Assembly (NCBI GenBank): GCA_964629655.1
Contig: CAZVQU010000001.1
Coordinates: 20,788-84,787, forward strand
DNA: 64,000 nt
Direction: 5' to 3'
From: an uncultured Planctomycetia bacterium
GTDB taxonomy: Bacteria > Omnitrophota > Gorgyraeia > Duberdicusellales > 4484-171
This document shows, in pieces, positions 5,441 to 54,820 of this stretch (positions are counted from its first letter, which is position 1; each line of letters begins with the position of its first letter). The notes beneath the pieces were generated by a model, which was given only the letters and a program-made list of their open reading frames with translations, was not told where the DNA came from and made no database searches. The position numbers and the translations under genes are program-made.

Positions 5441-5496
5441 GTTTTCTACAGGCTATACTGGTGCCCACAACTATACTGTTATGTCCGGTAATCTGC

Positions 5497-6636
5497 TTAC
5501 CGGGTATCGGACAAAAATTCTTTTTTAAAAACCCTGTACATCTCCTTAGCAACCACTTCATTCCCTTTCTCAAATAAATGGCAGAAATCAAGATAACATC
5601 TGTTAAAAGTATTGTCCAATATGCTTGAAGTATTGAAAAAATTTGTCAACGGCTTTCCTGCTAAGATTCCATTAACAATTGCATATAATCGACCTAATTG
5701 ATCTCCTTTACGTTTTTGATATATTTTAGTTTCTTCATTTGTTAGATTTTTTTTACTAAATAAAACTGGTTGCCAAAAACATATGTATTTAAAGCCATAT
5801 GCAATAGATAGACGATCCAAAAGGTCCTTTGACTTTACATAATATTCAATAATTCCATCCGCAAGCGAATGTAATTCTCTATTGCTATATCTTTGCCGCC
5901 GCGGTAAATAGGTAGATATTTTTTCTTTGCAGATTTTATAAATCATGCTATGTCTCTTAATTAAGTCTGCTAAATCACTCCCAAAGAAGTAAATATCCAT
6001 TAAAATATCGTTTTGCTTTATTCTTTCTAGTTTTCTTCTAATACCATGAAACGTTCCTCCCGGGATTGCAGACTGATAAGCTCCGTCAACATCGTTGGCG
6101 CCGTCATAAAAAATTACATAGTCTGGCCTATGCCCTTCTCTTAAAAGAATTATCAGATTAATAACCTCTCGTGTAAATGTATGTCCACCCTCTCCATAAT
6201 TGTAAACCAGATAATTATATTCATTATTATTGAGTAGTTTAGAAAAGTAAGACGGTATTGTGTAATCATCTCCTGCTCCTTCACCCCACAAAGACGAGCC
6301 ACCAAATATATATATTGTTTCAGCAAATCTCTTAGGGGCACCGGCTGGAAGCCAGGTTTTTCTAATTCCTTGAGAATTAATATTTACATATTTACCAACC
6401 TGCTCTTCTCTGCGCCAGCTCAGGTACTGGAGGGTATCCAATAGATTCCAGTCTATACCCGTAGATCCTTTACGATCTTCTTTTGATAGACTGGTCATAT
6501 ATTCGCTGTATTTACTTTTTTCTTTTTTTTGGACGCCTGAAATTACAAAATGTGCTATATGCAAGCAAGCCTCTACGGTAACAATAACAAGCACCGCAAC
6601 AATAAAACCAAAAAGTAGTCGTTTTCTTTTTTTCAC
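5497..6636 (-). CDS. Membrane-anchored SGNH/GDSL-family hydrolase (esterase/acyltransferase-like)
   Basis: 379 aa with an N-terminal TM helix, IFGGSSLWGEG (block I Ser), GANDVDG (block III) and DFCHL (block V DxxH). Confidence 0.5.
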   Translation of the reverse strand: MKKRKRLLFGFIVAVLVIVTVEACLHIAHFVISGVQKKEKSKYSEYMTSLSKEDRKGSTGIDWNLLDTLQYLSWRREEQVGKYVNINSQGIRKTWLPAGAPKRFAETIYIFGGSSLWGEGAGDDYTIPSYFSKLLNNNEYNYLVYNYGEGGHTFTREVINLIILLREGHRPDYVIFYDGANDVDGAYQSAIPGGTFHGIRRKLERIKQNDILMDIYFFGSDLADLIKRHSMIYKICKEKISTYLPRRQRYSNRELHSLADGIIEYYVKSKDLLDRLSIAYGFKYICFWQPVLFSKKNLTNEETKIYQKRKGDQLGRLYAIVNGILAGKPLTNFFNTSSILDNTFNRCYLDFCHLFEKGNEVVAKEMYRVFKKEFLSDTR

Positions 6637-6688
6637 CGGATAAATTTATTAAGATTGTTTTTTGTAGTTAGCCATCCTGGCTACATTT

Positions 6689-7990
6689 TCAACAATCAAT
6701 TAGCAATAAATTGCTCAATCGATTACATATTTTATTAAAAATTACCTGCCTGTGGATATAATTTTGAATTTTAATTAAAAGCTTGGCTAAGGCCGGGTGC
6801 CTTCTGGATTTATTATGTAAGAATATAGCCATTTTGAATAGAAAACTTCTTTTCTTTTTTCTGCTAACGCTAAAGTAATAATCAAAATCATTTTTAAGCT
6901 TTTGTTGGTCGTTATGCGGCATGGGGACCTTTATTATTAACTTATAGTCTGGTTTCAAATATACATTTTCTATAATATTGGGTAACTTTTTTAGGAAATT
7001 CTTTTCGTTCGGTCTTATTTCTCTGTTAACTAATAAATGGACTTGCATGTTAGGTAGCTCCTTGGTCTTTTCTAAAAGAGTCATCAAAATAGAAATGGGA
7101 ATATTAATTTTAGCCGCTCCTTTCAGATGATATATGGGAAGGAAGATGCGAACTTTGCGAAAACTTTTCGATAAGTCGTAATATGCTGAGAAGTCGTCAT
7201 AAAAATTGAAAAATTGGTAAGATAAATTTAGATCATAATAGTGACTGAAGACCTTCTTTAGATTGCCGCTACTGTAAATATTTATGAAGTCAGAAACAAT
7301 AAAAATATTCCTAAATTTATTTTTGCTATATGCCTTAAGGTCGCTAATTAATTTTTCTGGGCTTCGGGAAATTAGCCCTCTTTTACATAGCGCTTCCTGC
7401 AATTTTGTATTGCCATAGCATCCACTACAATTATTATAACATCCTTTTATGGCCTGAACAAATAAATAACTAAAATTATCACACTTTTGACTTTCTTTTA
7501 AGGAAGGGAACCAATCCAAATTTACATAATTACACTTATCAAAGTCATTTTGGTCTAACTTATAGGTGAAAGGTGTAGAGAAATCTCTTGCTACGATATT
7601 TGGTATTTTTTTACAGTCTAGTCCATTAAGCAAACTACTTACCAGCACTGGAAATGAACGATCTGCATCTCCTTTAATAATATAATCACAATTAAATCTT
7701 TTTATTAATATATCTGCGAATATTGTTGCAACATATCCACCAAGAACAATTTTTGCTTCTGGATTTATCCTTTTGTATTTTTTACATAAATTATACACCT
7801 GATAAAGAGAATAGAACCAATGTAAGTCCATTGCAATGATTTTCGTATTCTCTATGTCTTTTTTCTTAACTTCAAAATAAAACATCCCCTTCTTCTTACA
7901 ATTTAGGCTATTGATTAGAGAAATGCTACCTGTTGGGACAGTTAAATGACTAGGTATTCCTGTGAAAGGGTGGCTATAAAGTACATCCAT
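6689..7990 (-). CDS. B12-binding radical SAM protein (class B rSAM)
   Basis: 433 aa; CYNNCSGC fits CxxxCxxC and is preceded by a Rossmann-like B12-binding segment (KIVLGGYVATIFADIL...IIKGDAD). Confidence 0.6.
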   Translation of the reverse strand: MDVLYSHPFTGIPSHLTVPTGSISLINSLNCKKKGMFYFEVKKKDIENTKIIAMDLHWFYSLYQVYNLCKKYKRINPEAKIVLGGYVATIFADILIKRFNCDYIIKGDADRSFPVLVSSLLNGLDCKKIPNIVARDFSTPFTYKLDQNDFDKCNYVNLDWFPSLKESQKCDNFSYLFVQAIKGCYNNCSGCYGNTKLQEALCKRGLISRSPEKLISDLKAYSKNKFRNIFIVSDFINIYSSGNLKKVFSHYYDLNLSYQFFNFYDDFSAYYDLSKSFRKVRIFLPIYHLKGAAKINIPISILMTLLEKTKELPNMQVHLLVNREIRPNEKNFLKKLPNIIENVYLKPDYKLIIKVPMPHNDQQKLKNDFDYYFSVSRKKKRSFLFKMAIFLHNKSRRHPALAKLLIKIQNYIHRQVIFNKICNRLSNLLLIDC

Positions 7991-8029
7991 AAGTCTTAAT
8001 AATTCGATATCTTTTGTGGACCAAGGCTA

Positions 8030-8761
8030 TCAGAATTCAGCAAAGTCTCCGATGTTTTTTCCTTCAATCATCCCACCTGTAAGTTCTATCTCTGTATAAA
8101 TTTTGCTGACTGCTCCGCCGTATTCTGTAATCTCCTCGTTTTCCTTAACTTTACCTACACCTTGGGCAAGCCAAGTTGTTGTTATCACAACCATTGAAGA
8201 TCCCTTAATCTTGAGGAAAGAAAATATTACTAAACAATCTTCAAACCTTCCAGCAGGAACAGTTACGTCTTCAAACCCTTGAAATTTAATTTCGGCTGTA
8301 GCCATTCCTCTATCGACTATATTACCATCAGTATCGTAAACTACGAATGCTCTTGAGTCTTTAAATCCTTGATTCAATTGCAAATTATCAGGAAAAGCTA
8401 TTGCCGGCTGGGAGAATACGATATCCCCACCGTCTTTCGCAACTTTATGTAAGTAAATCCCCTCTTCTCCCAAGCTGTAATAGAAAATGGGGTTTCTGTC
8501 CCTGTCTCGTGTTTTGTCCATTTCTCTCTCAAGAAGATACACTTCCTTACCGTTAAGCAAATCCTTAGTTCGAATGACACTATGTATAATATGTCCAGAA
8601 GGCTTGCCCCGTCCTGTCTCAGATAGTGTATACCTCCATTCATTGCCGATTCCTATAGGAAAGTATTTTGATATTTCATAAGAATCCTCTGCTTTTAACA
8701 GCGGTTGAATTAGACAAATGGAAATACAAACTGCAAGAATGCTTAAAGCTATTTTTTTCAT
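8030..8761 (-). CDS. Secreted protein of unknown function (beta-domain family A, copy 1)
   Basis: 243 aa with signal peptide MKKIALSILAVCISICLIQPLLKA. Paralogous to 10949..11677 and to the C-terminal domain of 16921..19161 (shared YxISxYFP, PIFYYSL, VTVPAGRFEDCL, WLAQGVGKVK motifs). Confidence 0.5.
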   Translation of the reverse strand: MKKIALSILAVCISICLIQPLLKAEDSYEISKYFPIGIGNEWRYTLSETGRGKPSGHIIHSVIRTKDLLNGKEVYLLEREMDKTRDRDRNPIFYYSLGEEGIYLHKVAKDGGDIVFSQPAIAFPDNLQLNQGFKDSRAFVVYDTDGNIVDRGMATAEIKFQGFEDVTVPAGRFEDCLVIFSFLKIKGSSMVVITTTWLAQGVGKVKENEEITEYGGAVSKIYTEIELTGGMIEGKNIGDFAEF

Positions 8762-8780
8762 CGTCTACCTCCTCGTTTTT

Positions 8781-9257
8781 TCATGCTTGCGCACTTTTCT
8801 TCTTCTGTAATTCATCTATTCCCAACATCCAGGCAAGAAAAAGCATAGTCAGCCCCAAATTCAATACGAAGATGAATGGCGCAGACGTATTGTATTTACT
8901 TATATGTGCCCCTTCCAGCGCTCCAAGCTGAGACAACCGCGGATCACGGGGATTATAAAGAACTAAGGCTCTCTTACCCTCATTTAGCCGGCGGAAATCA
9001 GCATGGCCTAGCTTCTCCTGGATTGTATATTTTTGCCCTCGGGCATCTTTAAATTCATACCGAATGTATCGAGATGTAAAAATAGTGTTCTTCTCTGAAT
9101 CATCAATATCTTTCTCTAAAATTGTTGCAATAGCAATCTTGCTATTCCTTTCGAATTTGCGGTACTCTTTTACATCTTTGTAGTAAGAGAATATTGGCTT
9201 AGCTGCTATAATGATAAAGACTAAACCAACGGCCTGTATGGTAATAAATACCTTCAT
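8781..9257 (-). CDS. Small two-TM membrane protein (DUF3592-like architecture)
   Basis: 158 aa: N-terminal TM, a charged beta-rich middle region, C-terminal TM. Confidence 0.3.
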   Translation of the reverse strand: MKVFITIQAVGLVFIIIAAKPIFSYYKDVKEYRKFERNSKIAIATILEKDIDDSEKNTIFTSRYIRYEFKDARGQKYTIQEKLGHADFRRLNEGKRALVLYNPRDPRLSQLGALEGAHISKYNTSAPFIFVLNLGLTMLFLAWMLGIDELQKKKSAQA

Positions 9258-10930
9258 TGTCCACCTTGGCTAAATAAAAAAACATCAATTTTATTACCCT
9301 GCCAAGTAGACTCTAATTTTAAATTATCCTGTAAAAAATCTCTATACCTATGTAGCGATTCGATATTCAGATGAGGAACGCCAAAATAATCTTCCCAGGG
9401 AATAATTATCCAGAGCCTATTGCGGAATAATTTCCCTTGCGCCACATCCGTAGGCGATACTGCGTCAAAGTACCGTTCTGAATCAAAAATCCCTTTCGCA
9501 TTTACAGTTACAGGGTCATCTATTAACTCGGCTGGAAAGCCGACAAAGTCATTTTCCCTGAAATCTTTCTTGATATAGCGTAAAGCCTCCTTGTAAGCAG
9601 GATTTGTACGACTGAAAGTCATCTCATTTGTAAGATAAATATTCCATATTAATATTAGGAAAAAACAAGTATAACCTATTATTTTCCCAAATAAACTCCG
9701 CGATCTACTTAATAAAAATATGCCATAGCTATACACCATAGCAATAAAAGGAATTGCCCATGTAAAATGCCTGACATTAAAATACAACCTAGATGTTGCA
9801 TACCAAAAACACAGAAAGGAATGTATGCCGAATAACAAAGCTGAAAATAATATACTTACTACGAAGATGTAAAAGGGCGGCTCTCGATCTCGTAATTTAA
9901 GAATAATATAGGAATACAGAAGAACGAACAGATAACCAAATAGACCTGTTAAAGGTAACCCCCAGACCAATTTTATAATCCGGTCAATAATTAAAGGCCC
10001 ACTTTCTTGGCTCAGATAGAAACTATTGCCCCAGACGCCCTGAAATATGAACCCGCTAAAGATTGCCGAATACATAACAGGGCTCCATAGGATAATAAAA
10101 AAATTAAAAATAACTAGAGCTTTTATAAAATGTGAGAATGAAGACAGAAAAGAATGACCTGTACGGTATTTTCCCCACTTAGCTATAAAAATCGTCAACA
10201 ATTGCGAAAAAATAACTACAAGAGTAAAATAGTGAGTAAAAAAGCACAGTATGCTAACCAGACAATATTTCCATATCTTTTTTTCCTCCTGAGAAATAAA
10301 TGTCTGCCAAAAGTAATAGTAGCTTAATAATGCCAAAAAACAAAATAACGCATACGGTTCTGTTCTTCTGGAATAAAATGCAAAAAGGCTATGGACGTTG
10401 AGAAAGATAAAGCTTAGATAGGATATTAATTTATTATTAAATACTTTGAGAGAAAAATGGAAGGTTAAACAAGCGGTGCAAATACCAAAAAAGACAGAGA
10501 TGAACCTTAAAAAGAAATTATAATATTCGGGATTTAGCAGCCTCATCGGGATATTTAATATAAAGAGATATAAGGGTTGGCGGGATTGCACAACCATATT
10601 GTCAAGCAACGAGAAAATATTTACCTGGAGTTCTTGCGCGATACGTATATTCAGGGATTCCATAAGGTCAAAACTATTACTCCCTAAATATATTATCTTC
10701 CAAATTATAAATATAGAAGTTAATACAAAAAGCAACCTGATGTCCCTGCGGGACAATTTGTTACTTTGCTGGCTTACTTTGAGTGGGCAGACTTTGCTTT
10801 TTTTAAATTGTTTATTTGCATAAATGAATATTCCTATATTTGAAATGAATAAAAAAACAAGCAAAATCCAATAATTACAATAGTAGCTTAACGCGTTGCG
10901 TAAACCAAAATAATTTTCAATATCGTTCAT
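9254..10930 (-). CDS. Polytopic membrane protein, GT-C-like
   Basis: 558 aa with more than 10 TM helices and a C-terminal soluble domain of about 130 aa; flanked by the two secreted family-A paralogs. Confidence 0.4.
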   Translation of the reverse strand: MNDIENYFGLRNALSYYCNYWILLVFLFISNIGIFIYANKQFKKSKVCPLKVSQQSNKLSRRDIRLLFVLTSIFIIWKIIYLGSNSFDLMESLNIRIAQELQVNIFSLLDNMVVQSRQPLYLFILNIPMRLLNPEYYNFFLRFISVFFGICTACLTFHFSLKVFNNKLISYLSFIFLNVHSLFAFYSRRTEPYALFCFLALLSYYYFWQTFISQEEKKIWKYCLVSILCFFTHYFTLVVIFSQLLTIFIAKWGKYRTGHSFLSSFSHFIKALVIFNFFIILWSPVMYSAIFSGFIFQGVWGNSFYLSQESGPLIIDRIIKLVWGLPLTGLFGYLFVLLYSYIILKLRDREPPFYIFVVSILFSALLFGIHSFLCFWYATSRLYFNVRHFTWAIPFIAMVYSYGIFLLSRSRSLFGKIIGYTCFFLILIWNIYLTNEMTFSRTNPAYKEALRYIKKDFRENDFVGFPAELIDDPVTVNAKGIFDSERYFDAVSPTDVAQGKLFRNRLWIIIPWEDYFGVPHLNIESLHRYRDFLQDNLKLESTWQGNKIDVFLFSQGGQ

Positions 10931-10948
10931 AGCGATATAAAATTATAA

Positions 10949-11677
10949 TTAATCCTTACCCCTAACCTTTTTAGTTGTTGCTTTTTTAAGTTCTTTCTCA
11001 TTATAAACTTTGTGGTATCTCCCTTCTCTATACCTAATGAGTTCTTCTTTTACTTTAACTTTGCCTATTCCATGAGCAAACCAAGCTGTTTCTTTAACAA
11101 TTAGAGTATCTCTGGATGTTGAAAATACCCATAAAAAATCAATTTTTAAGCATTTATCGAATTTTCCCGCTGGGACAACCACATCTTCAACACCCTTAAG
11201 TTTAGCCTTTGTCTCAACTGTTCCTGCATCTATTAACTTATTCTTGGCTGTGTAAACTTGTATCGATGCAGAAACACTATGTTCCCGATTCGATTGTAAG
11301 CCGTTAGGGAAAAAAAGTAGCGGAGGGGAAAATACAAGATATCTGTTCTCTTCTACCATTTGATCTAAACTGATTCCTGAATTACTAAGACTATAGTAAA
11401 AAATCGGTTTTTTATTTCGGTCGGGTTCATAAAGATACATTTCTTTTTTACCTAGCAACTTCCTAGACTTAATGCAGCTTAGGGAGTCAACAGAGTCTGT
11501 CTTTGCTTCCTGGGAAAATCCCTCTTCAACCACATACCCTTGATATGCCCAGCTATTTCCTACAATTAGCGGGAAATATTCTGATATATCATAAGGCGCT
11601 TGCGCATTTAAATATACATTGCTTAAAAGAATAATAACGCAACTAAAAAGAATGGTTAAAGTTAATCTTTTTACCAT
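10949..11677 (-). CDS. Secreted protein of unknown function (beta-domain family A, copy 2)
   Basis: 242 aa with a signal peptide and the same motifs as the 8030..8761 product (YDISEYFPLIVGNSW, PIFYYSLSNSG, VVVPAGKFDKCL, WFAHGIGKVKVKEE). Confidence 0.5.
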   Translation of the reverse strand: MVKRLTLTILFSCVIILLSNVYLNAQAPYDISEYFPLIVGNSWAYQGYVVEEGFSQEAKTDSVDSLSCIKSRKLLGKKEMYLYEPDRNKKPIFYYSLSNSGISLDQMVEENRYLVFSPPLLFFPNGLQSNREHSVSASIQVYTAKNKLIDAGTVETKAKLKGVEDVVVPAGKFDKCLKIDFLWVFSTSRDTLIVKETAWFAHGIGKVKVKEELIRYREGRYHKVYNEKELKKATTKKVRGKD

Positions 11678-12471
11678 TACTCATCTCCCTTTTCTCTTAA
11701 TAAAACCATCGCCGCTCCAATAGCTGCAGTAAATTGTGGATATTGCAATATCTTTATATCTCTCATAAATTCTTCTGTTAATGAATACAAAAGCCCTTTA
11801 TTTTGCGCGGGCCCTCCGTCTAAATAGATCTCTTCTTCAACATCTAAACTTCGCATTAAATCGGATAGCCTTCTTGCTATAGACTGATGCAATCCGGTTA
11901 TAATGTCACCTTTATTTACTTTTGCATACAAAAGGGATACTATCTCGCTTTCAACAAAAACAACGCATGTGCTATTAATGGTAACTTTTGACTGGCCTAT
12001 ATTTCCTAAATTTCCCAAATCAGAAACAGAAACACTTAATATATGCGCCGCTTTTTCCAAAAATCTGCCGGTCCCGGCTGCGCATTTGTCGTTCATTTTA
12101 AAATCCACAATTTTACCATCAGAAGAGATCTTAATAACTTTAATATCTTGCCCTCCTACATTGACAACTGTCCTTGCTGTTCCATTACTTAAATGATAAG
12201 CCCCCACGCCGATTGCTGTAATTTCGTCTACAACTCTCTCTCTATCGGGAAAAATACGTTTACCGTAACCAGTAGTAGCCACTCCTAAAATTTTTTCCTT
12301 TGACAAAGAGAGTTCTCCTAACCCCTTCATTAAAAGATTCTTTGATACCTTAGTGCTTTCAAAGGTAGCAGGAGCAACTTTTGACCAAAGCAATCTTCTC
12401 TTTTCATCAATAAAAACAACTTTAATTGCGGCTGTGCCCAAATCAACTCCTGCAGCTACCATTTCCCTCAC
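11677..12471 (-). CDS. BadF/BadG/BcrA/BcrD-type ATPase; HgdC/YjiL-like CoA-substrate-specific enzyme activase
   Basis: 264 aa: AGVDLGTAAIKVV actin-like ATPase N-terminus and the CAAGTGRFLE motif characteristic of [4Fe-4S]-bridged dehydratase activases. Confidence 0.8.
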   Translation of the reverse strand: MREMVAAGVDLGTAAIKVVFIDEKRRLLWSKVAPATFESTKVSKNLLMKGLGELSLSKEKILGVATTGYGKRIFPDRERVVDEITAIGVGAYHLSNGTARTVVNVGGQDIKVIKISSDGKIVDFKMNDKCAAGTGRFLEKAAHILSVSVSDLGNLGNIGQSKVTINSTCVVFVESEIVSLLYAKVNKGDIITGLHQSIARRLSDLMRSLDVEEEIYLDGGPAQNKGLLYSLTEEFMRDIKILQYPQFTAAIGAAMVLLREKGDE

Positions 12472-12482
12472 CCACCTTTTTA

Positions 12483-13709: not shown

Positions 13710-13760
13710 TGCTACTTATTTCTCCTTTTAAACCATTCAAAAAAATATTTTTGTGAATAC
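13692..13760. repeat. 68-bp duplicated leader element, copy 1 (RBS plus first 6 codons of the hgdB-like gene and about 50 bp upstream)
   Basis: About 96% identical to 15043..15112; on the minus strand it contains the AAGGAGA RBS and ATGTTAAATTTACCCGGT. Confidence 0.8.
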
Positions 13761-13777
13761 CTTAATACAAACATTCT

Positions 13778-14938: not shown

Positions 14939-15042
14939 TATGCACCCATATCGATTTTTTTAAAATACAATAGTAAAACACTGTTAAGCAAATAATAAAA
15001 CCCTTCTTTCTTAACCTTTTTCTGTATTTTTCTTTTCATTCT

Positions 15043-15112
15043 ACCGGGTAAATTTAACATTGCTACTTATTTCTCTTTTTAAACCATTCAAAAAAATATT
15101 TTTTTGAAGAGG
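15043..15112. repeat. 68-bp duplicated leader element, copy 2 (overlaps the 3' end of the polyferredoxin CDS, upstream of the SGNH gene)
   Basis: Same sequence with one substitution (RBS becomes AAGAGA) and a poly-T length change; it supplies the last 13 codons of 15063..16043. Confidence 0.8.
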
Positions 15113-21811: not shown

Positions 21812-21820
21812 CTGGTTTCC

Positions 21821-22876: not shown

Positions 22877-22913
22877 TTTTATACTACAACTGTGTCTTTT
22901 TGATTAAATAATA

Positions 22914-24503: not shown

Positions 24504-24513
24504 TTTATTGCCT

Positions 24514-26833: not shown

Positions 26834-26853
26834 ATATTTTTTCTTAATCGAAG

Positions 26854-28359: not shown

Positions 28360-28367
28360 TTTTTAAA

Positions 28368-29789: not shown

Positions 29790-29796
29790 AATTTTG

Positions 29797-36654: not shown

Positions 36655-37065
36655 TTATCTTGTCCTTAATTTACCTCTTAGAATGTCTTTTATCTCCAGG
36701 ATTAACTTCTCCTTGTCAGAATCTAGATGTTCTTCGAGCTTCGGCGGTAACGCGGCAAATACATCCTCGGCATCAATATGATTTTCAAATTTTTCATAGG
36801 CTAAGCTCATGGTTTTGGCTACAATTTCAGCAAGACTCGGCAATAAATAATCTCTGATTTCCTGATCACTTAATTCAAATAGGGGGAACTCTTGAGGGTA
36901 CATAACTTCATTCATAGCATCCTGAAAGGCATCGATGATCTCTCTTTCACTAACAGCCTGGGCATACCCCTTAGGTCCAACCAGACAAATTAGCCCTACA
37001 ATAACTATCCCCAGCATCACCTTTCTGTTTAATTTAAACATTTTCCACCTCCCTTTTTTTGCCAT
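36655..37065 (-). CDS. Small exported or membrane-anchored protein, unknown function
   Basis: 136 aa with an N-terminal hydrophobic segment (VMLGIVIVGLICLVGPKGYAQA) and an acidic remainder. Confidence 0.35.
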   Translation of the reverse strand: MAKKGRWKMFKLNRKVMLGIVIVGLICLVGPKGYAQAVSEREIIDAFQDAMNEVMYPQEFPLFELSDQEIRDYLLPSLAEIVAKTMSLAYEKFENHIDAEDVFAALPPKLEEHLDSDKEKLILEIKDILRGKLRTR

Positions 37066-41629: not shown

Positions 41630-41635
41630 TTTATA

Positions 41636-43033: not shown

Positions 43034-43038
43034 ATTTA

Positions 43039-46938: not shown

Positions 46939-49325
46939 AATTTTCCTATAAACTTCTGCCGATCAAAACGAAGATAGTTCAAATAGCTCCTTGTCTTCCT
47001 AAAGGCTGTACCTAAGCCATGATTCTGCCAATATTTGAGGAATTTTTTTATATTGCCCAAGGCTCCTCTCTTCTGCCTCTGATGGTCAGCCCACAACCTA
47101 TAGGCATGCTGCTTTGCTTCTTCCAGCTCAGCCGAAGAAAGATTATCTGGTTGAAAAACGCAGCTGTTGTGGCCATCATACATAGAAAAATCTTTGGTTA
47201 AGATTTTGCCTCTTTTATCTAATTCTTCAAAAAGCGCTGTTCCCGGAAAAGGGGTAATTATAGAAAATTGCACAGAATGAGGGTCTAATTCTAAAGCGTA
47301 ATCGATAGTGCCTTTGATTGTCTCTCTGGTCTCTCCGGGAAGGCCGAAAGAAAACGTTAAATGGACATTTATTCCTAACGATTTAGTATATTTAATCACT
47401 CTTTCTGCTTTCCTTAAATCCAAGCTCTTTCCGCATCTATCCACTAATTCTTGTGAAGCACTCTCTACTCCATACTTTACCGCATGCAGACCGGCCTCTT
47501 TCATCTTATCCAGAATTTCCTCATCCATTAAATCCGCTTTCGCCATAATAGCCCAGGGAACCTTGCCCAAGCCTCTTCCTATAATTTCATCACATAGCTT
47601 TATCATCCTGTCTTTGCCTATATTGAAAGTATCATCATCAAAATATATAGATTTAAACCCCCGCTTGAGGATTAAATGTTCCATCTCACCCACCACATCA
47701 TCTACATCCCTCACCCTATAGGCCTTGCTGCCAAAAAAGGCCTGTGGCCATAAACAAAAGTTACAGCGAAAAGGACACCCTCGAGAAGCAACCATTTGAG
47801 CTGAAGGATGAGGTATATTTCCCGGCAAATCCCAATATTTCTCCATCGGGAGGCTATCTCCTCGATAAGGCCAGGGTAAAAAATCTAACTCAAAAGGTTC
47901 CCGAAAACGATTTTTAACCACATTGTTATCCTGATCTTTCCAAATAAGACCTTTTATATGGGAAAGGTCCTTTTCTCCTTGAGAAATAGCCTTAACTAAT
48001 TCAAGAAGGGTAAACTCATACTCTCCAAACAAAATAAAATCGATAAAGTCACTCTTTGCTAAAAATTCCGGTTTGCAGATTTCCGGATGCGGGCCGCATA
48101 AAATTACAGGAATATTCATCAACGATATTTTCCTTAACACTCCCATATCGTGATAAAAAGAAGGGACAGAGGTTTCAGTAACTAAAACATCAAAATCCAT
48201 CACAGATAGCTTCTCCAAGAATTTACCTTCAGGAGTTATCTCAGCAATAGCATCTATTAAACTAGCTTCAACATTATTTTTTATCAAAAGGGAAGTAGCA
48301 TAGGCGAGAAAAAATGGGAAAGGTAAGTAGTTGTTCTCGCTCCTATCTTTGATATGCGGCCAGCGGGAACCGGCCCTTACGCCCCAACTCCCTTCTTTTT
48401 GCCAAGGAAAATTGGTTAACAGCACTTTTAATTTCTTTTTTAGCTTTCTACTTTTTGTCTTTTCCTTTATTGTTGCCCTGAAACAATTTTGGCGTAAATT
48501 TTCTATTTTTTTATCTAACAAATTATCTTTTTCAAATAAGTTCATCCTTCCGGAAAAAAGGTGGTGATGTCCCGGATAATAAACGCCTTCATCCATAGGG
48601 CTTACGCACCTAAAACCGATAACATGAACATTAATATTTGAAGGTGGCTTCTGAATGAGTGCAAATACTTGCTCTTCGCTATTTTGGCACTCCAGCAACA
48701 GAGAAGGTAAAAATTCATCACCGACAGAAAACCTTGCTCCTACTAAAGAAGTAGGAATATTATCCGAGCAAAGGCCTTGCCAATGGTTACTTGGACGAGG
48801 AAAGTCTCCCTGTTGAAAATTATAAATCCAGGTTTTATACTCGGGGTTGACCTGACATATTACGCAGAAATCATCAATATCCATCCATTCTTCTATTTCA
48901 ATAGATATATCCAGATATATTTGACACCCCTCTGTTATTCTCAATACCCAAATCTGGCTTAAGGGCAATTCTTTAAAGGTCACTTTAACCTTGAAATTGT
49001 CTTTACCCATATCTAAAATTTGCCAATCTGCCTTTGTAGAATCTGTCGACAATCCCAAAGTATTAATGCCTACGTTTAAACCCGCCCCTCCAGTAACTTC
49101 AATATCATTGAAATAAATATTTATTCCGAATCCGGAATGAATTATTCTAATATTTCCTTTTGCAATAACATGCACTTTCGGTTGCTTAAGCTTAGCCTCT
49201 TTCCCCTCGGCTAAAAATTTTCTGACTAAAAAAATAAAATATTTAACTCCTCTCAAAAGAGCATAAAATAAACCACCGATTTTCAGATGCTGCCAGAATT
49301 TTCGACAGCTATTTCTAAAATTCAA
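46935..49325 (-). CDS. N-terminal W-rich beta-domain fused to a B12-binding radical SAM protein
   Basis: 796 aa. The N-terminal 290 aa (GFGINIYFND...ADWQILDMG...LSQIWVLRI...NFQQGDFPRPSNHWQGL) match the Wzt repeats; then a B12 domain (VILCGPHPEICKPEFL...ILFGEYE) and SRGCPFRCNFC. Confidence 0.75.
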   Translation of the reverse strand: MNFRNSCRKFWQHLKIGGLFYALLRGVKYFIFLVRKFLAEGKEAKLKQPKVHVIAKGNIRIIHSGFGINIYFNDIEVTGGAGLNVGINTLGLSTDSTKADWQILDMGKDNFKVKVTFKELPLSQIWVLRITEGCQIYLDISIEIEEWMDIDDFCVICQVNPEYKTWIYNFQQGDFPRPSNHWQGLCSDNIPTSLVGARFSVGDEFLPSLLLECQNSEEQVFALIQKPPSNINVHVIGFRCVSPMDEGVYYPGHHHLFSGRMNLFEKDNLLDKKIENLRQNCFRATIKEKTKSRKLKKKLKVLLTNFPWQKEGSWGVRAGSRWPHIKDRSENNYLPFPFFLAYATSLLIKNNVEASLIDAIAEITPEGKFLEKLSVMDFDVLVTETSVPSFYHDMGVLRKISLMNIPVILCGPHPEICKPEFLAKSDFIDFILFGEYEFTLLELVKAISQGEKDLSHIKGLIWKDQDNNVVKNRFREPFELDFLPWPYRGDSLPMEKYWDLPGNIPHPSAQMVASRGCPFRCNFCLWPQAFFGSKAYRVRDVDDVVGEMEHLILKRGFKSIYFDDDTFNIGKDRMIKLCDEIIGRGLGKVPWAIMAKADLMDEEILDKMKEAGLHAVKYGVESASQELVDRCGKSLDLRKAERVIKYTKSLGINVHLTFSFGLPGETRETIKGTIDYALELDPHSVQFSIITPFPGTALFEELDKRGKILTKDFSMYDGHNSCVFQPDNLSSAELEEAKQHAYRLWADHQRQKRGALGNIKKFLKYWQNHGLGTAFRKTRSYLNYLRFDRQKFIGKL

Positions 49326-52300
49326 CTTTTATTGCTCCTTTAAAGTAAGGATATTTTCCCGGTAACATCTTGTAAGTATTGGCTTTTTGATATTGAAGCA
49401 GCCTTGCATGATATAAATCGTCGGTATTTTCTATAATCGCCCGCAGATTCTCGTCCTCCGTATCATTCTGGAAACAAACTCCAGGCAAGATCTCTGCCTT
49501 AGCTACAATTTCTTTTGCCTTACCGTACCAGAATCTAAACGGCAAAATATCATATTCTTGAGTATACTCATTCAAAAAATTCCCGCAGCTGTCCTTAGAT
49601 ACTGTCCAATTTTCATATTGCGAACAAAGCATAATATTCGCTTGGCATATTTCTAAATCAAGCCGTTCATGAATTTCCATACCTACCTGCCAAGAAATTA
49701 AATTTTTACCAACCATTTCGATATGCCAAATCTGAGAAAGAACGATGTGCGGCCAAAAACCCCTTACCGTCAGTTTATTATTTTCTTTCCGTTTTACTTC
49801 CCAAACAGCTTGATAAGAATCATACCAAATTCCTAAAGAGCGTACCGAAGTATATACCCCTAATCCGGAAGTTAGCTCTTCGGCTCCCTTCTTTAAAAAT
49901 ATACCTCCTTTGCCTTGGTTAAAAGCAAATTTCAAACAATTACTGTTTATCTCAACAGCACTACGCTTCCTTGTAAGCTTTCCTATTTTTGCTGTCTTAC
50001 CAACGATTATTTCACCTTCAAAGCAAGTATGTCTACCTAAAGAAATTATTTTCTTTTTTCTAGAAGCAATCGCTCCGGAATAAATACCAATACACTTAGA
50101 ACCTTTCTCTCTTCGTTTATAGATATTAAAAAATCTATTTTCGGAAGGCAATGTGCATCGCAACAATACACGGGGATTACGCTTAGTATCCTTAGATATA
50201 AGGATAATTCCCGGAATTCGATTGTCTTTCAGGCGTATCGGAGCAACATTATTTATATACCTGCTAGTTAAAAGATTTCCCTCCTCTTCCGAAGCCATCC
50301 ATCTTTGGTAACAATCCTTTAGCTCCAGCCTCACCCCTTCGTCAATAAACGATATCGGCCCATCAGATTTAATCTCCACTTTAACCCTTAAGGTATTTTC
50401 ATCGATATACTGGATGTCCCATATTTGGATAACGGAAACCTGAGGATAGGAGAGAGTTAAAATGAGCCGTTTCCCAGATACATTTTCTATTTTCCACTGG
50501 GCGTTAGACAGACCAAATCTCTCCTTGGAATTGTTAAACGAGTAATGCAAACCACAGGCATGAGTTAATTCCTTATTTTTAAAAAAAATCCGTAACGCCA
50601 TTGATTCCTCGTCGGCAAACAGCCGCAGATTCCCGCAAGCGATAGTCCTACTTAAAACGAACAACTCTTGTTCTTCCTGCTGTTTTCGACGGTATTGTTC
50701 CTTTTGTTCGATAAGGTAAGCGGCAATCGGATTTTCTTCTTTCCAGATGCTGATCGGGATTAAAAAAGAACTTTTTCTCTTCATAATATCTTCTTTAGAA
50801 ATACTTAGCTGCAAAGCACGGCACTGCCTCTGTCTATCGCTGTTTTGGATAATGCACTCGTGGCTCTCTCTGTTCTCCAAAATAATTGCCGGAAATTCAG
50901 ATTGCTCTCTTAAACCGCAAAGCTTTGCCTGCGGCTCGATTAACGACATATCCTGCCAACTATTAGAATATTGAGGAAAATTTCCTTGTTGGCAGCCGCA
51001 GAAAAAACTTTTATACGCAGGATTAAAAAGTAAACCGAATTTAAATAGCCTGACCTCAAACGGTTGAGGAAATTGAGAGTCAACCTGCCATAAAAGCTTA
51101 TTGTCACTAAAAGAGATTTCCCATAGTTGTTTGAATTTTAAACAATCCCAAAAGAAAGATAAAATAAGAGTCTCCCCCTTCCTCTTCACCTGCCATTCAC
51201 AGGAAGATAAATCATACCAAACGTTATTAACAAAAAATGAACTATGCAGCCCTGCTTCCTGAGTAATCTCTTTGCCTTTGTAGTAAAGTCTTAAGGCCTT
51301 TTCGTTGATATCAGCAAAAAATTTAACATCTCCCGAATTAATAGTATGTTCAGCGCATAGACGATCCTGTTCTTTTTGCTGCCTTAGAAGAAATTTTTGT
51401 TTAGTCTCCCTGATGCACCCTAAAAACTCACACTCTTTAGGAAATATCTTAATAAAAACAGAGTTTTTAGCCTTTAAAGCTAAATCCCACTGGACAACAC
51501 GAGCTTCTTGTTCATACCCTGCGTTAAATAGTTTAAACAAACCATCCTTAGCTTTTTGTTCCAGAATAAGGCCAGGGTTAGGACGATCTTGATGATGCCA
51601 ATCTCCGGATAGGCCCACCATAGCATCAAAATAGCTGCTTAAACCTAAATCCTGCCAGTTAGACTTAGAAACAAAGGACGGAAAATCACTGCCTTTATCT
51701 AAAGTCTGCCACCTCGCATATTGAGGCATAAAAAACAAATCTACATGTGGCTGCTTTATGCCCTCTCCTCTTACTTCTGTTTGCCATTGTAAACAATTAT
51801 TTTCTAGCTGAAACATCCAGATTTGTGAAAAACTCCCATCATATGATTTTCCTTCAGCAACAATCCTGTCGGCTCCGAAACTCTCTACCTGCCAGAATAG
51901 ATTAAGAGAAGACGACCAACTATTAAGAGAAGGAATAAGAAAAGATACATAACCACCCATTGCCTTAGTGATAGGAAAACCTTTATAGCTAAGAACAACT
52001 TTGCCATTGTTAAATATTACCCTTAATCCTTCTTTCTCTAAAACCGCAATGCCCTTTTTGTCTCCAACGGTTTCTAGATAATACGGGACAACCTTTGTTG
52101 CTAAATCTTCCTGGACAATCCTGCCTTTCTCCAGGAGGATTAACTTATCACATAGCTTGCTTACGATATCCATATCATGGCTGACTAAAATAATGGTTTT
52201 CCCCATTTGCTTCAACTCAAATATCTTCTTAATACACTTCTCCTGCGCTTCCACATCACCTACAGCCAAAATATCGTCAATCAAAAGTATGTCCGGCTCA

Positions 52301-52755
52301 ACGAATATTGCTAAAGCAAAAGCAAGCCGCATGTACATACCCTGAGAATAGTATTTAATAGGTGCATCAATAAACTCACCCAAATCGGCGAACTTTATAA
52401 TATCGCCCATCCTTTGCTTTAGGTCAGTCTCGCTTAAGCCATAGATAGCAGCATTAAGGTTTATATTTTCTATTCCGGTAAACTCAAGGTTAAACCCCGC
52501 TCCCAGTTCCATTAAGGCCGATACTTTGCCTTTAATATGGACTTCCCCTTTATCGGGAATCAGCATTCCGGCTATCAGCTTTAACAAAGTTGTCTTACCG
52601 GCTCCATTTTTGCCAATAATGCCTATAATGTCGCCTTTCTCTACCTTGAAATTGATATTCTCCAGCGCCCAGACCTCTTCCCAGCAAACATTCTTCTGTT
52701 TGATAAACTTTATCCTGTATTTTTCCCAAACACCGTTAAAATTTATTACTTTCAT
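49315..52755 (-). CDS. Wzt/TagH/KpsT-type polysaccharide ABC-transporter ATP-binding protein with a C-terminal extension of about 900 aa carrying four repeats of a W-rich beta-domain
   Basis: 1146 aa: Walker A GKNGAGKTTLLKLIAG, signature YSQGMYMRLAFALA, Walker B LLIDDILAVGD, H-loop SHD. Four repeats follow, each with GLxxS..W.D..WQV/WEV...W...IWxxE and a QQGNFP-like motif. Confidence 0.8.
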   Translation of the reverse strand: MKVINFNGVWEKYRIKFIKQKNVCWEEVWALENINFKVEKGDIIGIIGKNGAGKTTLLKLIAGMLIPDKGEVHIKGKVSALMELGAGFNLEFTGIENINLNAAIYGLSETDLKQRMGDIIKFADLGEFIDAPIKYYSQGMYMRLAFALAIFVEPDILLIDDILAVGDVEAQEKCIKKIFELKQMGKTIILVSHDMDIVSKLCDKLILLEKGRIVQEDLATKVVPYYLETVGDKKGIAVLEKEGLRVIFNNGKVVLSYKGFPITKAMGGYVSFLIPSLNSWSSSLNLFWQVESFGADRIVAEGKSYDGSFSQIWMFQLENNCLQWQTEVRGEGIKQPHVDLFFMPQYARWQTLDKGSDFPSFVSKSNWQDLGLSSYFDAMVGLSGDWHHQDRPNPGLILEQKAKDGLFKLFNAGYEQEARVVQWDLALKAKNSVFIKIFPKECEFLGCIRETKQKFLLRQQKEQDRLCAEHTINSGDVKFFADINEKALRLYYKGKEITQEAGLHSSFFVNNVWYDLSSCEWQVKRKGETLILSFFWDCLKFKQLWEISFSDNKLLWQVDSQFPQPFEVRLFKFGLLFNPAYKSFFCGCQQGNFPQYSNSWQDMSLIEPQAKLCGLREQSEFPAIILENRESHECIIQNSDRQRQCRALQLSISKEDIMKRKSSFLIPISIWKEENPIAAYLIEQKEQYRRKQQEEQELFVLSRTIACGNLRLFADEESMALRIFFKNKELTHACGLHYSFNNSKERFGLSNAQWKIENVSGKRLILTLSYPQVSVIQIWDIQYIDENTLRVKVEIKSDGPISFIDEGVRLELKDCYQRWMASEEEGNLLTSRYINNVAPIRLKDNRIPGIILISKDTKRNPRVLLRCTLPSENRFFNIYKRREKGSKCIGIYSGAIASRKKKIISLGRHTCFEGEIIVGKTAKIGKLTRKRSAVEINSNCLKFAFNQGKGGIFLKKGAEELTSGLGVYTSVRSLGIWYDSYQAVWEVKRKENNKLTVRGFWPHIVLSQIWHIEMVGKNLISWQVGMEIHERLDLEICQANIMLCSQYENWTVSKDSCGNFLNEYTQEYDILPFRFWYGKAKEIVAKAEILPGVCFQNDTEDENLRAIIENTDDLYHARLLQYQKANTYKMLPGKYPYFKGAIKVEF

Positions 52756-53534
52756 AGCTTCTTAAATAATTCCGGTTCCCTCTTTATAAAAAACCAATAT
52801 CCTCCGACAAAAAAAACTACCGAGATTAAGGAGGCTAGGAGCATAAGCTGTAAAGTTGGAACAGATCCTTCATAGAGAATCTGTCGATATAACATGATAT
52901 AGTAAGTTAAGGGATTGAATAGACAGATCCAGCGATAGGGAAATTCTAACATCTGAAGAGAGTAAAATACCGGGGTAACCCAAAACCATAGCATTAAGCC
53001 AACGGATAAAAAATGCATCAAATCGTCAGAAAAGGCATTGAGGGCGGAGAAAATCATCCCTAAGCCCAGAAGAAAAACTAAATGTAAGATAAAAACTAAC
53101 ACAAGAATTGGTAAAACTTTAATCATCTGGGGATTGGCGATGAAGAAAAAAGGTAAAAGAAAAATGATTCCGATTATAAAACTCAAAGAATTCGCAAAAA
53201 CGCAAGACGCCGGAATAAATTCACGCGGGAATATACCTTGTTTTAATATTGCTGAATCGGCAGCAAAAGAGTTAGTTACTTCCATTACAGTATTGGAAAA
53301 AAATAACCAGGGAATAATTCCTGAAAGAACGAATAAAGTGAAATCAGGAATCTCAACCTTAAAAACATGGGTAAAAATAATATCAATGCTAAAAGCCAAA
53401 ATTAAAGGTGTGGCAACCGCCCACCAGAGGCCGAGCATCGCCCCGGAATACTTAGCCTTGAACTTCTTAGCCATCATCCCTTTAAGAATAGCTCTGGCCT
53501 GAAACGCTTTTATTATTCGTCCTTTAACAATCAT
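52752..53534 (-). CDS. ABC-2 type (Wzm/TagG-like) polysaccharide exporter permease
   Basis: 260 aa with 6 predicted TM helices and ABC-2 topology, immediately upstream of the Wzt-like ATPase with a 4-nt overlap. Confidence 0.7.
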   Translation of the reverse strand: MIVKGRIIKAFQARAILKGMMAKKFKAKYSGAMLGLWWAVATPLILAFSIDIIFTHVFKVEIPDFTLFVLSGIIPWLFFSNTVMEVTNSFAADSAILKQGIFPREFIPASCVFANSLSFIIGIIFLLPFFFIANPQMIKVLPILVLVFILHLVFLLGLGMIFSALNAFSDDLMHFLSVGLMLWFWVTPVFYSLQMLEFPYRWICLFNPLTYYIMLYRQILYEGSVPTLQLMLLASLISVVFFVGGYWFFIKREPELFKKL

Positions 53535-54820
53535 AATTTATTCTTAACAATCTTCTCTGCTTCAAGGATAACATCTTCCATTGACAGATAACGCCAGCTA
53601 CCGTACCGGCCGCACGAAATAATACTGTTTCTTGACAAAAAATTTAGTATCTTCCTGCGTACTGAAGTATAATTTTTGTTATAAACAGGATAGCCGTACT
53701 TTATATCGTTTACATTTTCACAACAAATCTCATTTCCATCTTTAATAACTCCGGTAGCAGTTAAGTATTCCCTGATTTGAGCACCAATTTCTCTCCTACG
53801 AAGGGGCCGATCTTTTGAATAGGAAATATCTACATACAACGACCCTCTCTTCCGAGGCACAAGGTGAGAAGAAAAATTATGAAAGAAACCTATTCTAAAA
53901 AAAGGAATATTCTTCTGCGAAAAATAAACCCAATGCCGGCCGGGCTGAATTCTTTTCTTCACTCCCAAATTAACATTGCAAATAGATATCCACCTCAATT
54001 CCTTAAAGTTACTCTTCATGCCTTTAGGTAGCGCTGTGATTATCTTGCCAAGTTCGGGTAAAGGAATAGTAGACACTAACTTGTCAAACTTCTCCTTTCT
54101 CCCGTCTTTAAAAGTCACCGCCTTTTTCTTCAAGTCAATCGCCACTGCCTGAGAGCATAAATGAATGTTGTCCAAGCCTGAGTAGAATCCTTTGATTAAC
54201 CCCTCGATTCCTCCTTTTCTTGGATACCAAAAAGAATTGTTATAGCCTAACGGCTCGCTCTTCTCTCTGTTTAACCTCTCTTTAATTTGCTTGAGAGTAG
54301 GAACAATTATAAACCTTTCTGCCCATTTATGGTTCAACTGGTCTAAAGGAATTTTCCATAATTTGGCATTGTAAGGAATCATAAAATTGCTGGCTATGCC
54401 TTTACCAAACTCATTATGAGTCCATTGCAGAAAATTACTGCTTCTTGAAGCTCGTTTCTTCGCCTCAATAAGCCCCTGCAAACATTGCTTAGCAACTCTT
54501 TTAGGCAGATAGTTAAAATTAACTTGAAATGGGTATGGTATAAATTTTTTAGAAGCATAAACGTAAGCCTTTCTTTTGTGTTTTGTCAAACCGCCGTTTA
54601 AAACTTCCTTTACTAAAGATAATGTATTTCTGTTTCTAAAATGCAAGAGGTGCCCGCTGGAATCAAATGTAAACCCTTGTCTTTCTGTCGAGCGGCACAA
54701 ACCGCCTGGTTTAATTTCTTTCTCGAAAATTTCAGCTTTTACTTTCCTTTCTCTTAAAAAGTATGCTAATGACAGACCTGACAAGCCTGCTCCGATAATT
54801 AAAACTGCTCTTTTTTTCAT
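53531..54820 (-). CDS. FAD-dependent oxidoreductase, UDP-galactopyranose mutase (Glf)-like
   Basis: 429 aa: LIIGAGLSGLSLAY (GxGxxG), EKEIKPGGLCRST, GFTFDSSGHLLHF (compare Glf GG..YT...G...YGAHIFHT). Position next to wzm/wzt mirrors galactofuranose O-antigen loci. Confidence 0.5.
   Translation of the reverse strand: MKKRAVLIIGAGLSGLSLAYFLRERKVKAEIFEKEIKPGGLCRSTERQGFTFDSSGHLLHFRNRNTLSLVKEVLNGGLTKHKRKAYVYASKKFIPYPFQVNFNYLPKRVAKQCLQGLIEAKKRASRSSNFLQWTHNEFGKGIASNFMIPYNAKLWKIPLDQLNHKWAERFIIVPTLKQIKERLNREKSEPLGYNNSFWYPRKGGIEGLIKGFYSGLDNIHLCSQAVAIDLKKKAVTFKDGRKEKFDKLVSTIPLPELGKIITALPKGMKSNFKELRWISICNVNLGVKKRIQPGRHWVYFSQKNIPFFRIGFFHNFSSHLVPRKRGSLYVDISYSKDRPLRRREIGAQIREYLTATGVIKDGNEICCENVNDIKYGYPVYNKNYTSVRRKILNFLSRNSIISCGRYGSWRYLSMEDVILEAEKIVKNKL

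Follow-up and report, generated by a model that had tools for sequence, protein, structure and literature searches.

A putative envelope glycan locus conserved in Omnitrophota, in which a Wzt-type exporter and radical SAM enzymes have a predicted mutarotase-fold domain in common

Among bacterial glycan systems that depend on ABC transporters are the wzm-wzt-glf clusters for Klebsiella galactan and the Wzm/Wzt pair for mycobacterial galactan, and in Escherichia coli O9a the Wzt ATPase carries a C-terminal carbohydrate-binding domain, the Wzt_C jelly-roll. Radical S-adenosylmethionine (rSAM) enzymes that act on sugars are also known, namely the diol dehydratase AprD4, the dehydrogenase BtrN, the cobalamin (B12)-dependent ring-contraction enzyme OxsB and the GenK-type C-methylases. 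These cases involve one or two enzymes that act on soluble or hopanoid-bound monosaccharides, and none of them concerns a polymer exported by Wzt. Here we analysed a 64,000-nucleotide (nt) stretch of DNA (contig CAZVQU010000001.1, positions 20,788 to 84,787 of the forward strand; hereafter the window) from an uncultured member of the Omnitrophota, a widespread phylum whose members are very small, host-dependent and for the most part uncultured. Nearly the whole window is taken up by a minus-strand gene array in which Wzm/Wzt-like export genes and glycosyltransferase (GT) genes lie together with rSAM genes. We give an about even chance to the reading that this is a composite envelope locus, conserved in Omnitrophota, in which an ABC-transporter-dependent glycan would be tailored by rSAM enzymes as a lipid-linked intermediate, through a domain that we call X, and then exported. 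The components that are new here are the X family of putative substrate-reading domains, the proposed rSAM tailoring beside Wzm/Wzt export, and an invariant peptide with its maturase.

The core (module A, 35277-54820) and the two GT genes that follow it are listed below along the minus strand. Genes are named throughout by their lower coordinate.

53531..54820 (-): UDP-galactopyranose-mutase (UGM)-like flavoenzyme, the first core gene (Pfam Amino_oxidase and NAD_binding_8)
52752..53534 (-): Wzm-type ABC-2 permease (PF01061, E 2.4e-14) with 7 predicted transmembrane (TM) segments
49315..52755 (-): Wzt/TagH-type ABC ATPase (amino acids (aa) 1-227, PF00005) with four X domains in tandem behind it
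46935..49325 (-): X domain (aa 52-270) joined to an HpnJ/AprD4-like B12-type rSAM enzyme (CX3CX2C at 517; HpnJ model, 244 bits)
43039..46938 (-): three rSAM/SPASM (twitch-like) modules in 1299 aa (Radical_SAM x3, SPASM x3; CX3CX2C at 36, 553 and 963)
41636..43033 (-): degenerate rSAM half-barrel without CX3CX2C, with a C-terminal X domain at aa 253-465 (Radical_SAM 26.3 against a cut-off of 29.5)
39593..41629 (-): B12-binding rSAM enzyme of 678 aa (Pfam B12-binding and Radical_SAM; best NCBIfam model rSAM_ocin_1)
37065..39596 (-): SPASM/twitch rSAM (N-terminal half), B12 rSAM (C-terminal half) and a C-terminal TM helix at aa ~803 (Pfam)
36655..37065 (-): protein of 136 aa that matches no family, hydrophobic segment at its N terminus; conserved beside the 37065 orthologue
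35277..36440 (-): GT4 (Pfam)
34186..35280 (-): GT4 (Pfam)
33366..34217 (-): GT2 (Pfam), with a weak MftF-like match

Like the O9a, Klebsiella and mycobacterial systems, the locus combines an adjoining ABC-2 permease and TagH/Wzt ATPase with a UGM-type mutase and cytoplasmic GT4 and GT2 enzymes, and it is the pairing of the permease with a TagH/Wzt-like nucleotide-binding domain (NBD) that places the exporter in the Wzm/Wzt class. TagH and galactan Wzt were the top NCBIfam models for 49315, both below their equivalog cut-offs, and orthologues of the Wzm were present in 12 loci (41-80% identical). A preliminary description of this DNA, made from the sequence alone, had named a Glf-like flavoenzyme; the nearest solved structure to 53531 is a UGM, the eukaryote-type enzyme of T. 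cruzi (4dsg, E 3.7e-48, residues 6-411), and its score with the bacterial Glf model TIGR00031 is 44 against a cut-off of 304. Its orthologue lies upstream of Wzm in L006, L007, L009, L012-L014 and L019. The GT2, three GT4, GT-C, carbohydrate esterase family 4 (CE4) and Wzm/Wzt assignments of that description were all confirmed by Pfam; NCBIfam matches of the GT4/GT4/GT2 run (33366..36440) were generic only.

As in O9a, the Wzt of this locus has a C-terminal extension that would be expected to read the substrate. Wzt_C (PF14524) did not match 49315, however, and in its place stand four copies of X, a ~210-aa domain of another fold that has no Pfam or NCBIfam match and is common to three adjoining genes. 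The four copies (aa ~238-457, 470-677, 704-925 and 935-1145) lie in a 900-aa extension of the Wzt, and single copies form the N terminus of 46935 and the C terminus of 41636. An AlphaFold model based on the X alignment was all-beta (pLDDT 93.5), from which we confidently predict a galactose-mutarotase-like beta-supersandwich; the analogy that we propose with the O9a jelly-roll is therefore one of function, since the fold differs. In X the residues T, W, Q, W, Y, P and F are invariant, most of them aromatic (W50, W75, Y112 and F203). None is His, Glu or Asp, and the catalytic His/Glu of aldose 1-epimerases is absent, which suggests that X serves in binding rather than in epimerase catalysis.

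Searching 1.84 billion representatives with a profile of X returned 649 clusters of X-containing proteins. Architectures were checked in 158 proteins, consisting of the best 150 of the 649 clusters together with earlier fragment matches. Wzt NBD plus X, with no other domain of the window, accounted for 84 of the 158, and others had X fused to SPASM or B12 rSAM domains; the architecture of 41636 was repeated in P0104, P0149 and P0156. In P0044 (1856 aa) and P0151 (1217 aa) an NBD, X and a SPASM rSAM module occupy one polypeptide, as do a B12 rSAM module, a SPASM module and X in P0102 (1403 aa). Judged by their domains, these three are natural fusions of exporter and putative tailoring enzyme. 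Wzt proteins with X copies were found in 16 loci from GTDB species representatives, mostly labelled Omnitrophota and some Planctomycetia, with 3-6 copies in each complete protein. The gene that follows them encoded X plus rSAM wherever it was on the contig (13/13 loci); the rSAM part was usually of the B12 type, but L014 had a SPASM-type enzyme, and L016 and L007 had fusions (B12+SPASM or B12+B12). Neither such fusions of X to rSAM nor a complement of ~13 rSAM modules is a feature of the ABC-transporter-dependent O-polysaccharide systems.

For the rSAM inventory we applied the Pfam cut-offs (Radical_SAM PF04055, 29.5; B12-binding PF02310, 32.1) and the curated equivalog cut-offs of NCBIfam. 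There are 14 CX3CX2C motifs, at 6689, 20333, 25418, 26854, 28368, 29797, 31588, 37065 (two), 39593, 43039 (three) and 46935, exactly the genes at which the preliminary description had placed its at least 14 rSAM modules. Thirteen of these modules, each with the motif, exceeded the Radical_SAM cut-off, so that the search with hidden Markov models proposed there did identify rSAM and B12 domains. The exception is 6689, which has the motif but no PF04055 match; its B12-binding score is sub-threshold (27.6 against 32.1) and its alignment to the Ta0216-type B12/rSAM model of NCBIfam is partial (E 9e-20), so that it is divergent and its place among 14 intact modules is marginal. Nine B12-binding modules had been claimed. 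Seven passed the Pfam cut-off (20333, 25418, 26854, 28368, 29797, the C-terminal half of 37065, and 39593), whereas 46935, with no Pfam B12 match, belongs to class B only by its end-to-end alignment to the HpnJ model (residues 317-786 against 17-468 of 472), B12-type domain included, and 6689 fell short. AprD4, the nearest solved relative of 46935 (6fd2, E 1e-25), itself has a B12-type domain and is not known to use cobalamin. The five SPASM modules were all recovered, four by Pfam (the N-terminal half of 37065 and the three of 43039) and that of 31588 by NCBIfam, structure and a C-X17-C (G-X4-C) motif; the auxiliary Cys motif is present in all five. The 41636 remnant, which has lost its motif, was missing from the earlier list. 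Because the B12 rSAM paralogues of the window are just 23-33% identical to each other, they are old, distinct enzymes, and recent tandem duplication was rejected as the origin of the rSAM genes.

The core rSAM proteins resemble enzymes that act on sugars. In addition to the match of 46935 to AprD4, the N-terminal half of 37065 is nearest to BtrN (E 1e-11) and its C-terminal half to OxsB (E 4e-10). Together with HpnJ, these enzymes stand closest to 46935, 37065 and 25418 among solved or modelled relatives, although identities are low and all scores lie below the family cut-offs. The three modules of 43039, which are 32-36% identical to each other and occur as three separate genes in L007, gave W_rSAM_matur, AhbD and twitch as best NCBIfam models, all below cut-offs. 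Orthologues of 37065 and of the adjoining 36655 in L004 and L005 are 57-58% and 31-36% identical, respectively.

In the scheme that we favour, of which we infer the substrate, every reaction and the order of the steps, 53531 would supply a furanose nucleotide sugar. The core rSAM enzymes, cytoplasmic or membrane-anchored (an HpnJ/AprD4-like B12 enzyme, three SPASM/twitch modules and a BtrN-like plus OxsB-like fusion), would then remodel sugars by dehydration or deoxygenation, oxidation, C-methylation or ring rearrangement. X would bind the glycan, keeping the polymer in place at the tailoring enzymes and gating its export, and Wzm/Wzt would export the tailored product after the rSAM remodelling. 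The predicted TM helix of 37065, a membrane anchor, counts in favour of this scheme. The connection between rSAM enzymes and Wzm/Wzt-dependent carbohydrate export had previously been drawn from co-location; it now extends to a domain common to Wzt and rSAM proteins, a UGM-like enzyme at the head of the core and sugar-acting relatives. A poly-C-methylated or cross-linked polymer, as had been suggested, would be pure inference.

Downstream of the GT genes, two further genes form a pair:

33166..33249 (-): unannotated open reading frame (ORF) of 27 aa, MRAKKINKAKKSKKKLSRYCRSGRVLW, a candidate precursor peptide directly upstream of the maturase gene 31588
31588..33111 (-): CteB/PapB-like rSAM/SPASM peptide maturase with an N-terminal beta3-alpha3 domain that resembles a RiPP recognition element (RRE) (PapB 228 bits against 340)

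A peptide ORF was present upstream of the 31588 orthologue (41-67% identical) in 30/30 loci, including L021 (8388..8471), L023-L048, L051 and L052. These ORFs encode 26-47 aa, with a Lys-rich variable N-terminal part and the invariant C terminus LSR(Y/F)CRSGRVLW. Synonymous codons in that C terminus vary at every degenerate position, a pattern by which a conserved non-coding element was ruled out. The peptide belongs to no Pfam or NCBIfam family and we found none like it in the literature. The maturase gave E 2e-40 with PDB 5wgg and also matched the QhpD and SCIFF models of NCBIfam, remaining below the PapB and SCIFF cut-offs. Its structural model (pLDDT 86.9, and >90 in the beta3-alpha3 domain) was matched by Foldseek to the thioether synthase CteB in full length (E 1e-29, TM-score 0.81), and the next matches were other peptide maturases. 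With a precursor adjoining its maturase, an RRE-like domain and a core Cys, the pair has the features of ribosomally synthesized and post-translationally modified peptides (RiPPs) of the sacti/ranthipeptide type. It resembles the SCIFF, ranthipeptide and sactipeptide systems (CteB, PapB) in having a short precursor gene directly upstream of an rSAM/SPASM maturase with an RRE-like N-domain, and the cofactor precursors of PQQ and mycofactocin in its invariant core sequence. Unlike in SCIFF, the core has one Cys rather than six and the leader is Lys-rich, and unlike in SCIFF/ranthipeptide systems no protease or exporter partner was found by the pair in this locus or conserved beside it in L051 and L052. 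A ribosome-arrest leader peptide may be an alternative role, but would leave the obligate pairing with a maturase homologue unexplained.

In L051 and L052 the peptide and maturase genes stand alone among housekeeping genes, far from glycan genes. The pair is thus a self-contained system that cannot be counted with confidence among the glycan enzymes, and 31588, which had been included in the glycan rSAM set, is by homology and modelling probably a maturase of its own precursor-like peptide, with a glycan role unlikely. The product would probably be a peptide with a thioether-type cross-link. A metallo-beta-lactamase-fold gene lies just upstream of the lone pair in both loci (L051 7905..8669; L052 8773..9594) and may be a partner enzyme or a coincidence. 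In the window, ~25 nt over the peptide start (TTAAAATGCGTGCGAAAAGATAAAC) are repeated ~50 nt upstream, minus one A (33255..33310, -), where they encode a 5-codon mini-ORF (MRAKR-stop) that may be the remnant of a second copy of the peptide.

The invariance of the peptide and its constant pairing with a CteB-like maturase raise a different explanation for the whole locus. The 27-aa product would be a scaffold: 31588 would cross-link it, the B12 rSAM enzymes would C-methylate it or modify it in some other way, in the manner of proteusins, U32 proteins would hydroxylate or cleave it, the GTs would glycosylate it and the ABC-2 transporter would export it; or else it could become a glycosylated cofactor as in mycofactocin. 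It would accommodate the weak MftF-like match of the GT2, the position of 29797 directly after the maturase in many loci, and the best NCBIfam match of 39593 and the C-terminal half of 37065, a RiPP C-methyltransferase subfamily; those rSAM_ocin_1 scores, however, are 129 and 138 against a cut-off of 282. We consider this explanation very improbable, since the pair occurs without any other gene of the locus, neither a leader protease nor a RiPP-type exporter is present, the Wzt-type ATPase is fused to a domain of a carbohydrate-type fold, and a single peptide gene with a 13-residue core faces ~13 other rSAM modules.

Beyond the maturase, the array continues into a second block (16921-31362) and a set of redox genes:

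25418..31362 (-): four consecutive B12-binding rSAM enzymes (29797, 28368, 26854 and 25418; Pfam, above cut-offs)
24514..25317 (-): CE4 polysaccharide deacetylase (PF01522, E 1.5e-10; weak match to the XrtA-system deacetylase model)
16921..24503 (-): DUF2079 (22914), U32 (21821), B12 rSAM (20333), U32 (19158) and DUF2079 with a DUF3108-like C-terminal region (16921)
16043 (-): protein with N- and C-terminal predicted hydrophobic segments, no family given (within 11677..16924)
15063..16043 (-): NapH/MauN-like membrane polyferredoxin
13778..14938 (-): SGNH-like cassette gene (weak, below the Pfam cut-off)
12483 (-): double-cubane-type reductase-like HGD-D protein (double_cubane 247 bits against 350; with its activase, 11677..13709)
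11677 (-): BcrAD/BadFG ATPase activase (within 11677..16924)

The four consecutive rSAM enzymes are 26-33% identical mutually and HpnJ-, BchE- or ApyD-like, below cut-offs. With the GT2 and the deacetylase, the HpnJ-like rSAM genes recall the HpnI/HpnK/HpnJ neighbourhood of the hopanoid cyclitol ether pathway. In our scheme this block probably makes modified polyprenyl-phosphate-linked sugars and transfers them on the periplasmic side, by means of its B12 rSAM, U32, GT-C (DUF2079 at 16921 and 22914) and CE4 proteins. The U32/B12-rSAM/U32 trio recurs in L020, L033, L045 and L053, and B12-rSAM, U32 and PMT_2 genes are interleaved in L020, L022, L033 and L045.

Among U32 proteins, UbiU/UbiV, TrhP and RlhA are O2-independent hydroxylases, and the anaerobic hydroxylation by UbiU/V and TrhP depends on prephenate. 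The window U32 proteins are nearest to 5d88, with a weak TrhP match (E 4e-5). The two genes are paired and Cys-rich, as in UbiU/UbiV; unlike UbiU/UbiV, TrhP and RlhA, they have no ubiquinone or RNA context, and a B12 rSAM gene always lies between or beside them. In L021 (11548..14968) two U32 genes flank a chorismate mutase gene (CM_2, 95 aa) beside the 29797 orthologue, a hint that fits prephenate-dependent anaerobic hydroxylation. The pair would probably be Fe-S, prephenate-type anaerobic hydroxylases. The NapH-like polyferredoxin and the ATP-dependent double-cubane-type reductase and activase would plausibly deliver low-potential electrons to the rSAM/B12 enzymes, perhaps as a dedicated supply.

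The closest described parallel for this density of rSAM genes is found in groundwater Elusimicrobia, a sibling phylum of anaerobes, where nitrogenase-paralogue loci hold up to 13 rSAM genes per neighbourhood, several with B12 domains, again beside an ATP-dependent low-potential reductase (10.1101/765248). That system has NifHDK paralogues and its predicted substrate is a tetrapyrrole (10.1101/765248), whereas here an HGD-D/double-cubane reductase is accompanied by glycosyltransferases and Wzm/Wzt. The statement that the present system has no characterised precedent agrees with the literature on rSAM enzymes in connection with Omnitrophota, polysaccharide, Wzt/O-antigen or U32/prephenate, in which we found none.

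Synteny, which the preliminary description had asked to be examined in related genomes, is extensive. The core order of UGM-like enzyme, Wzm, Wzt-Xn, X-rSAM, multi-SPASM, SPASM/B12 fusion, small protein and GT4 recurs in related Omnitrophota loci, and the full order (module A, GT4/GT2, peptide, maturase, 29797, U32 block) could be assembled piecewise from L005, L010, L015, L042, L044 and L045, in which GT4/GT2 orthologues bridge module A and the peptide module. Orthologues of 29797 (62-93% identical) were found in >120 clusters, nearly all Omnitrophota. Their neighbours are other B12 rSAM genes, paired U32 genes, PMT_2 and DUF3108, often with no Wzt-X within 10 kb; in L020 a Glycos_transf_4 gene adjoins the 29797 orthologue. 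The locus is a phylum-wide conserved feature, not peculiar to a single genome, and it is a mosaic of modules that are also found apart in other Omnitrophota. Domain content, folds and fusions, like this synteny and conservation, are matters of observation.

Such a mosaic may have no common product at all, the Wzt-X core, the peptide pair, the B12-rSAM/U32/GT-C block and the reductase/ferredoxin block being independent neighbours. Blocks of 29797, U32, B12-rSAM and PMT_2 genes without Wzt-X within 10 kb in L020-L022 speak for this, as do the solitary peptide and maturase genes of L051 and L052. The array is also split by gaps of 214-254 nt and has a promoter-like site upstream of the peptide gene, and the SGNH cassette bracketed by repeats points to local flux. 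Nevertheless, the same module order can be pieced together across the six loci just named, all genes lie on one strand with many stop/start codon overlaps, and several genomes have GT-C genes interspersed among their rSAM genes; we hold independent neighbours to be rather unlikely. Were they independent, one polymer modified by 14 rSAM modules would be an illusion produced by gene order. A single product of the 14 modules is in any event not evident, and the modules occur separately in other Omnitrophota.

Several observations count against an rSAM-tailored, exported glycan. No rSAM module in the window reached any NCBIfam equivalog cut-off, the best scores being 244 against 578 for HpnJ, 217 against 481 for BchE and 228 against 340 for PapB, and consequently no reaction can be assigned. 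The mutarotase fold also occurs in the P1 domain of YidC, which is not a carbohydrate protein, so that sugar binding by X is not proven. The Pfam results for the window lack PF00953, PF02397 and PF04932, with no initiating phosphoglycosyl transferase among them, and contain no recognisable WaaL or Wzy family member; the ABC-transporter-dependent O-polysaccharide systems differ in this, as neither an initiating transferase nor a ligase is recognisable here. The occurrence of the B12-rSAM/U32 block and the peptide pair away from Wzt-X elsewhere means that a single common product is not established. Finally, the conservation of 29797 is unusually high for surface-glycan genes and fits a housekeeping lipid or cofactor role too.

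This last point leads to lipids. The rSAM enzymes might remodel membrane lipids or polyprenyl carriers, as do Mss, Tes, Grs, Hbs, Hgm and HpnJ, the HGD-D protein and activase would resemble the PlsA/Ger ether-lipid reductases, and Wzm/Wzt would export a glycolipid, with X reading its head group. The rSAM enzymes known from lipid pathways belong to the B12 and SPASM/twitch types, the NCBIfam model that ranks first for 46935, 25418 and 28368 is HpnJ, and phylum-wide, high conservation, the membrane anchor and the membrane polyferredoxin would also suit such a role. Hbs and Mss homologues have been reported in some Omnitrophota (10.1101/2023.10.20.563219; PMC11868695). However, every lipid-family model falls well short of its cut-off (126 at best against 360 for rSAM_ladder_B12, 244 at best against 578 for HpnJ), the sequence of 43039 does not match the GDGT-MAS structure, and genes for isoprenoids, fatty acids or glycerolipids are absent from the window. 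A carbohydrate-type fold for X, a UGM-like enzyme, four to five glycosyltransferases and a CE4 deacetylase likewise argue for a glycan, and a lipid pathway seems improbable to us.

A more far-reaching form of the tailored-glycan reading is tentative and, in our view, on the doubtful side. It holds that the sugars of the polymer are radically rebuilt, by deoxygenation, C-methylation, ring contraction and cross-links, while lipid-linked in the cytoplasm, with X physically coupling the rSAM enzymes to Wzm/Wzt, and that the resulting class of polysaccharide has no characterised counterpart; separately, the invariant rSAM-matured peptide would possibly be cofactor-like. If the core part of the reading is true, rSAM enzymes act on a glycan polymer bound for export, beyond small metabolites, which would open a new field of carbohydrate chemistry among anaerobes and might account for unusual properties of the Omnitrophota envelope. 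X would offer an experimental handle, since ligand capture is feasible with a soluble module of ~210 aa, and the Wzt-X-rSAM fusions would serve as a natural model of the coupling between tailoring and export. The peptide and its maturase are a compact two-gene system that is directly testable in E. coli.

The distal part of the array runs to the left edge of the window:

10949 and 8030 (-): DUF3108-like proteins
9254 and 3704 (-): membrane proteins of no known family, with 9 and 10 TM segments, respectively
8781 (-): DUF3592
6689 (-): divergent B12-rSAM-like protein
5497 (-): SGNH-like protein (weak, below the Pfam cut-off)
1935 (-): PMT_2 GT-C
851..1966 (-): GT4
1..851 (-): further GT4-like gene (MKKVLCIITHLELGGAQKQ...), overlapping the stop codon of the GT4 gene 851..1966 and running off the window

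The genes at 5497 and 13778, described earlier as two SGNH hydrolases, are thus only weakly SGNH-like. The ORFs of the array, which extends from the left window edge to 58737, are close-packed with many 1-4-nt overlaps. Because the last GT4-like gene crosses the left edge, the locus measures at least 55 kb and reaches position 1 and beyond the window, which makes it larger than the ~50 kb first given.

A chimeric join of unrelated contigs, named at the outset as a finding that could overturn the locus, was ruled out. Independent Logan contigs show the same gene order from 57 to 41.6 kb (L001), 39.6 to 22.9 kb (L056) and 13.7 to ~2.5 kb (L060), the last of which matches the distal order (1..11677); a single 762-kb NCBI contig holds the genes at 31.6, 43, 49 and 55.8 kb; and GC content (~36%) and the negative GC skew are uniform across the window. 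Logan contigs of several independent assemblies break at ~13.72 and ~15.05 kb, the positions of a 105-nt direct repeat (13653-13757 and 15004-15108, 81% identical) that flanks the SGNH-like gene 13778..14938. This suggests a strain-variable cassette, carried by only some of the co-occurring strains, rather than a mis-join.

Promoter and terminator scans of the window remained at chance level, the only promoter-like site of note being that upstream of the peptide gene. An exact look-up of the 16921 product returned no record, and those of 20333 and 15063 returned short contigs only. The two DUF2079 paralogues, otherwise diverged, have a 300-nt patch that is 94% identical (17602-17901 and 22932-23231) and a second matching patch at 18976/24306, again spaced by 5330 nt, and the patches look like gene conversion. 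An Rfam search of the gaps found no riboswitch and only two tRNAs, which are adjacent genes (57205..57382, -) situated just beyond the locus, between a Mem_trans transporter gene and an M48 peptidase gene.

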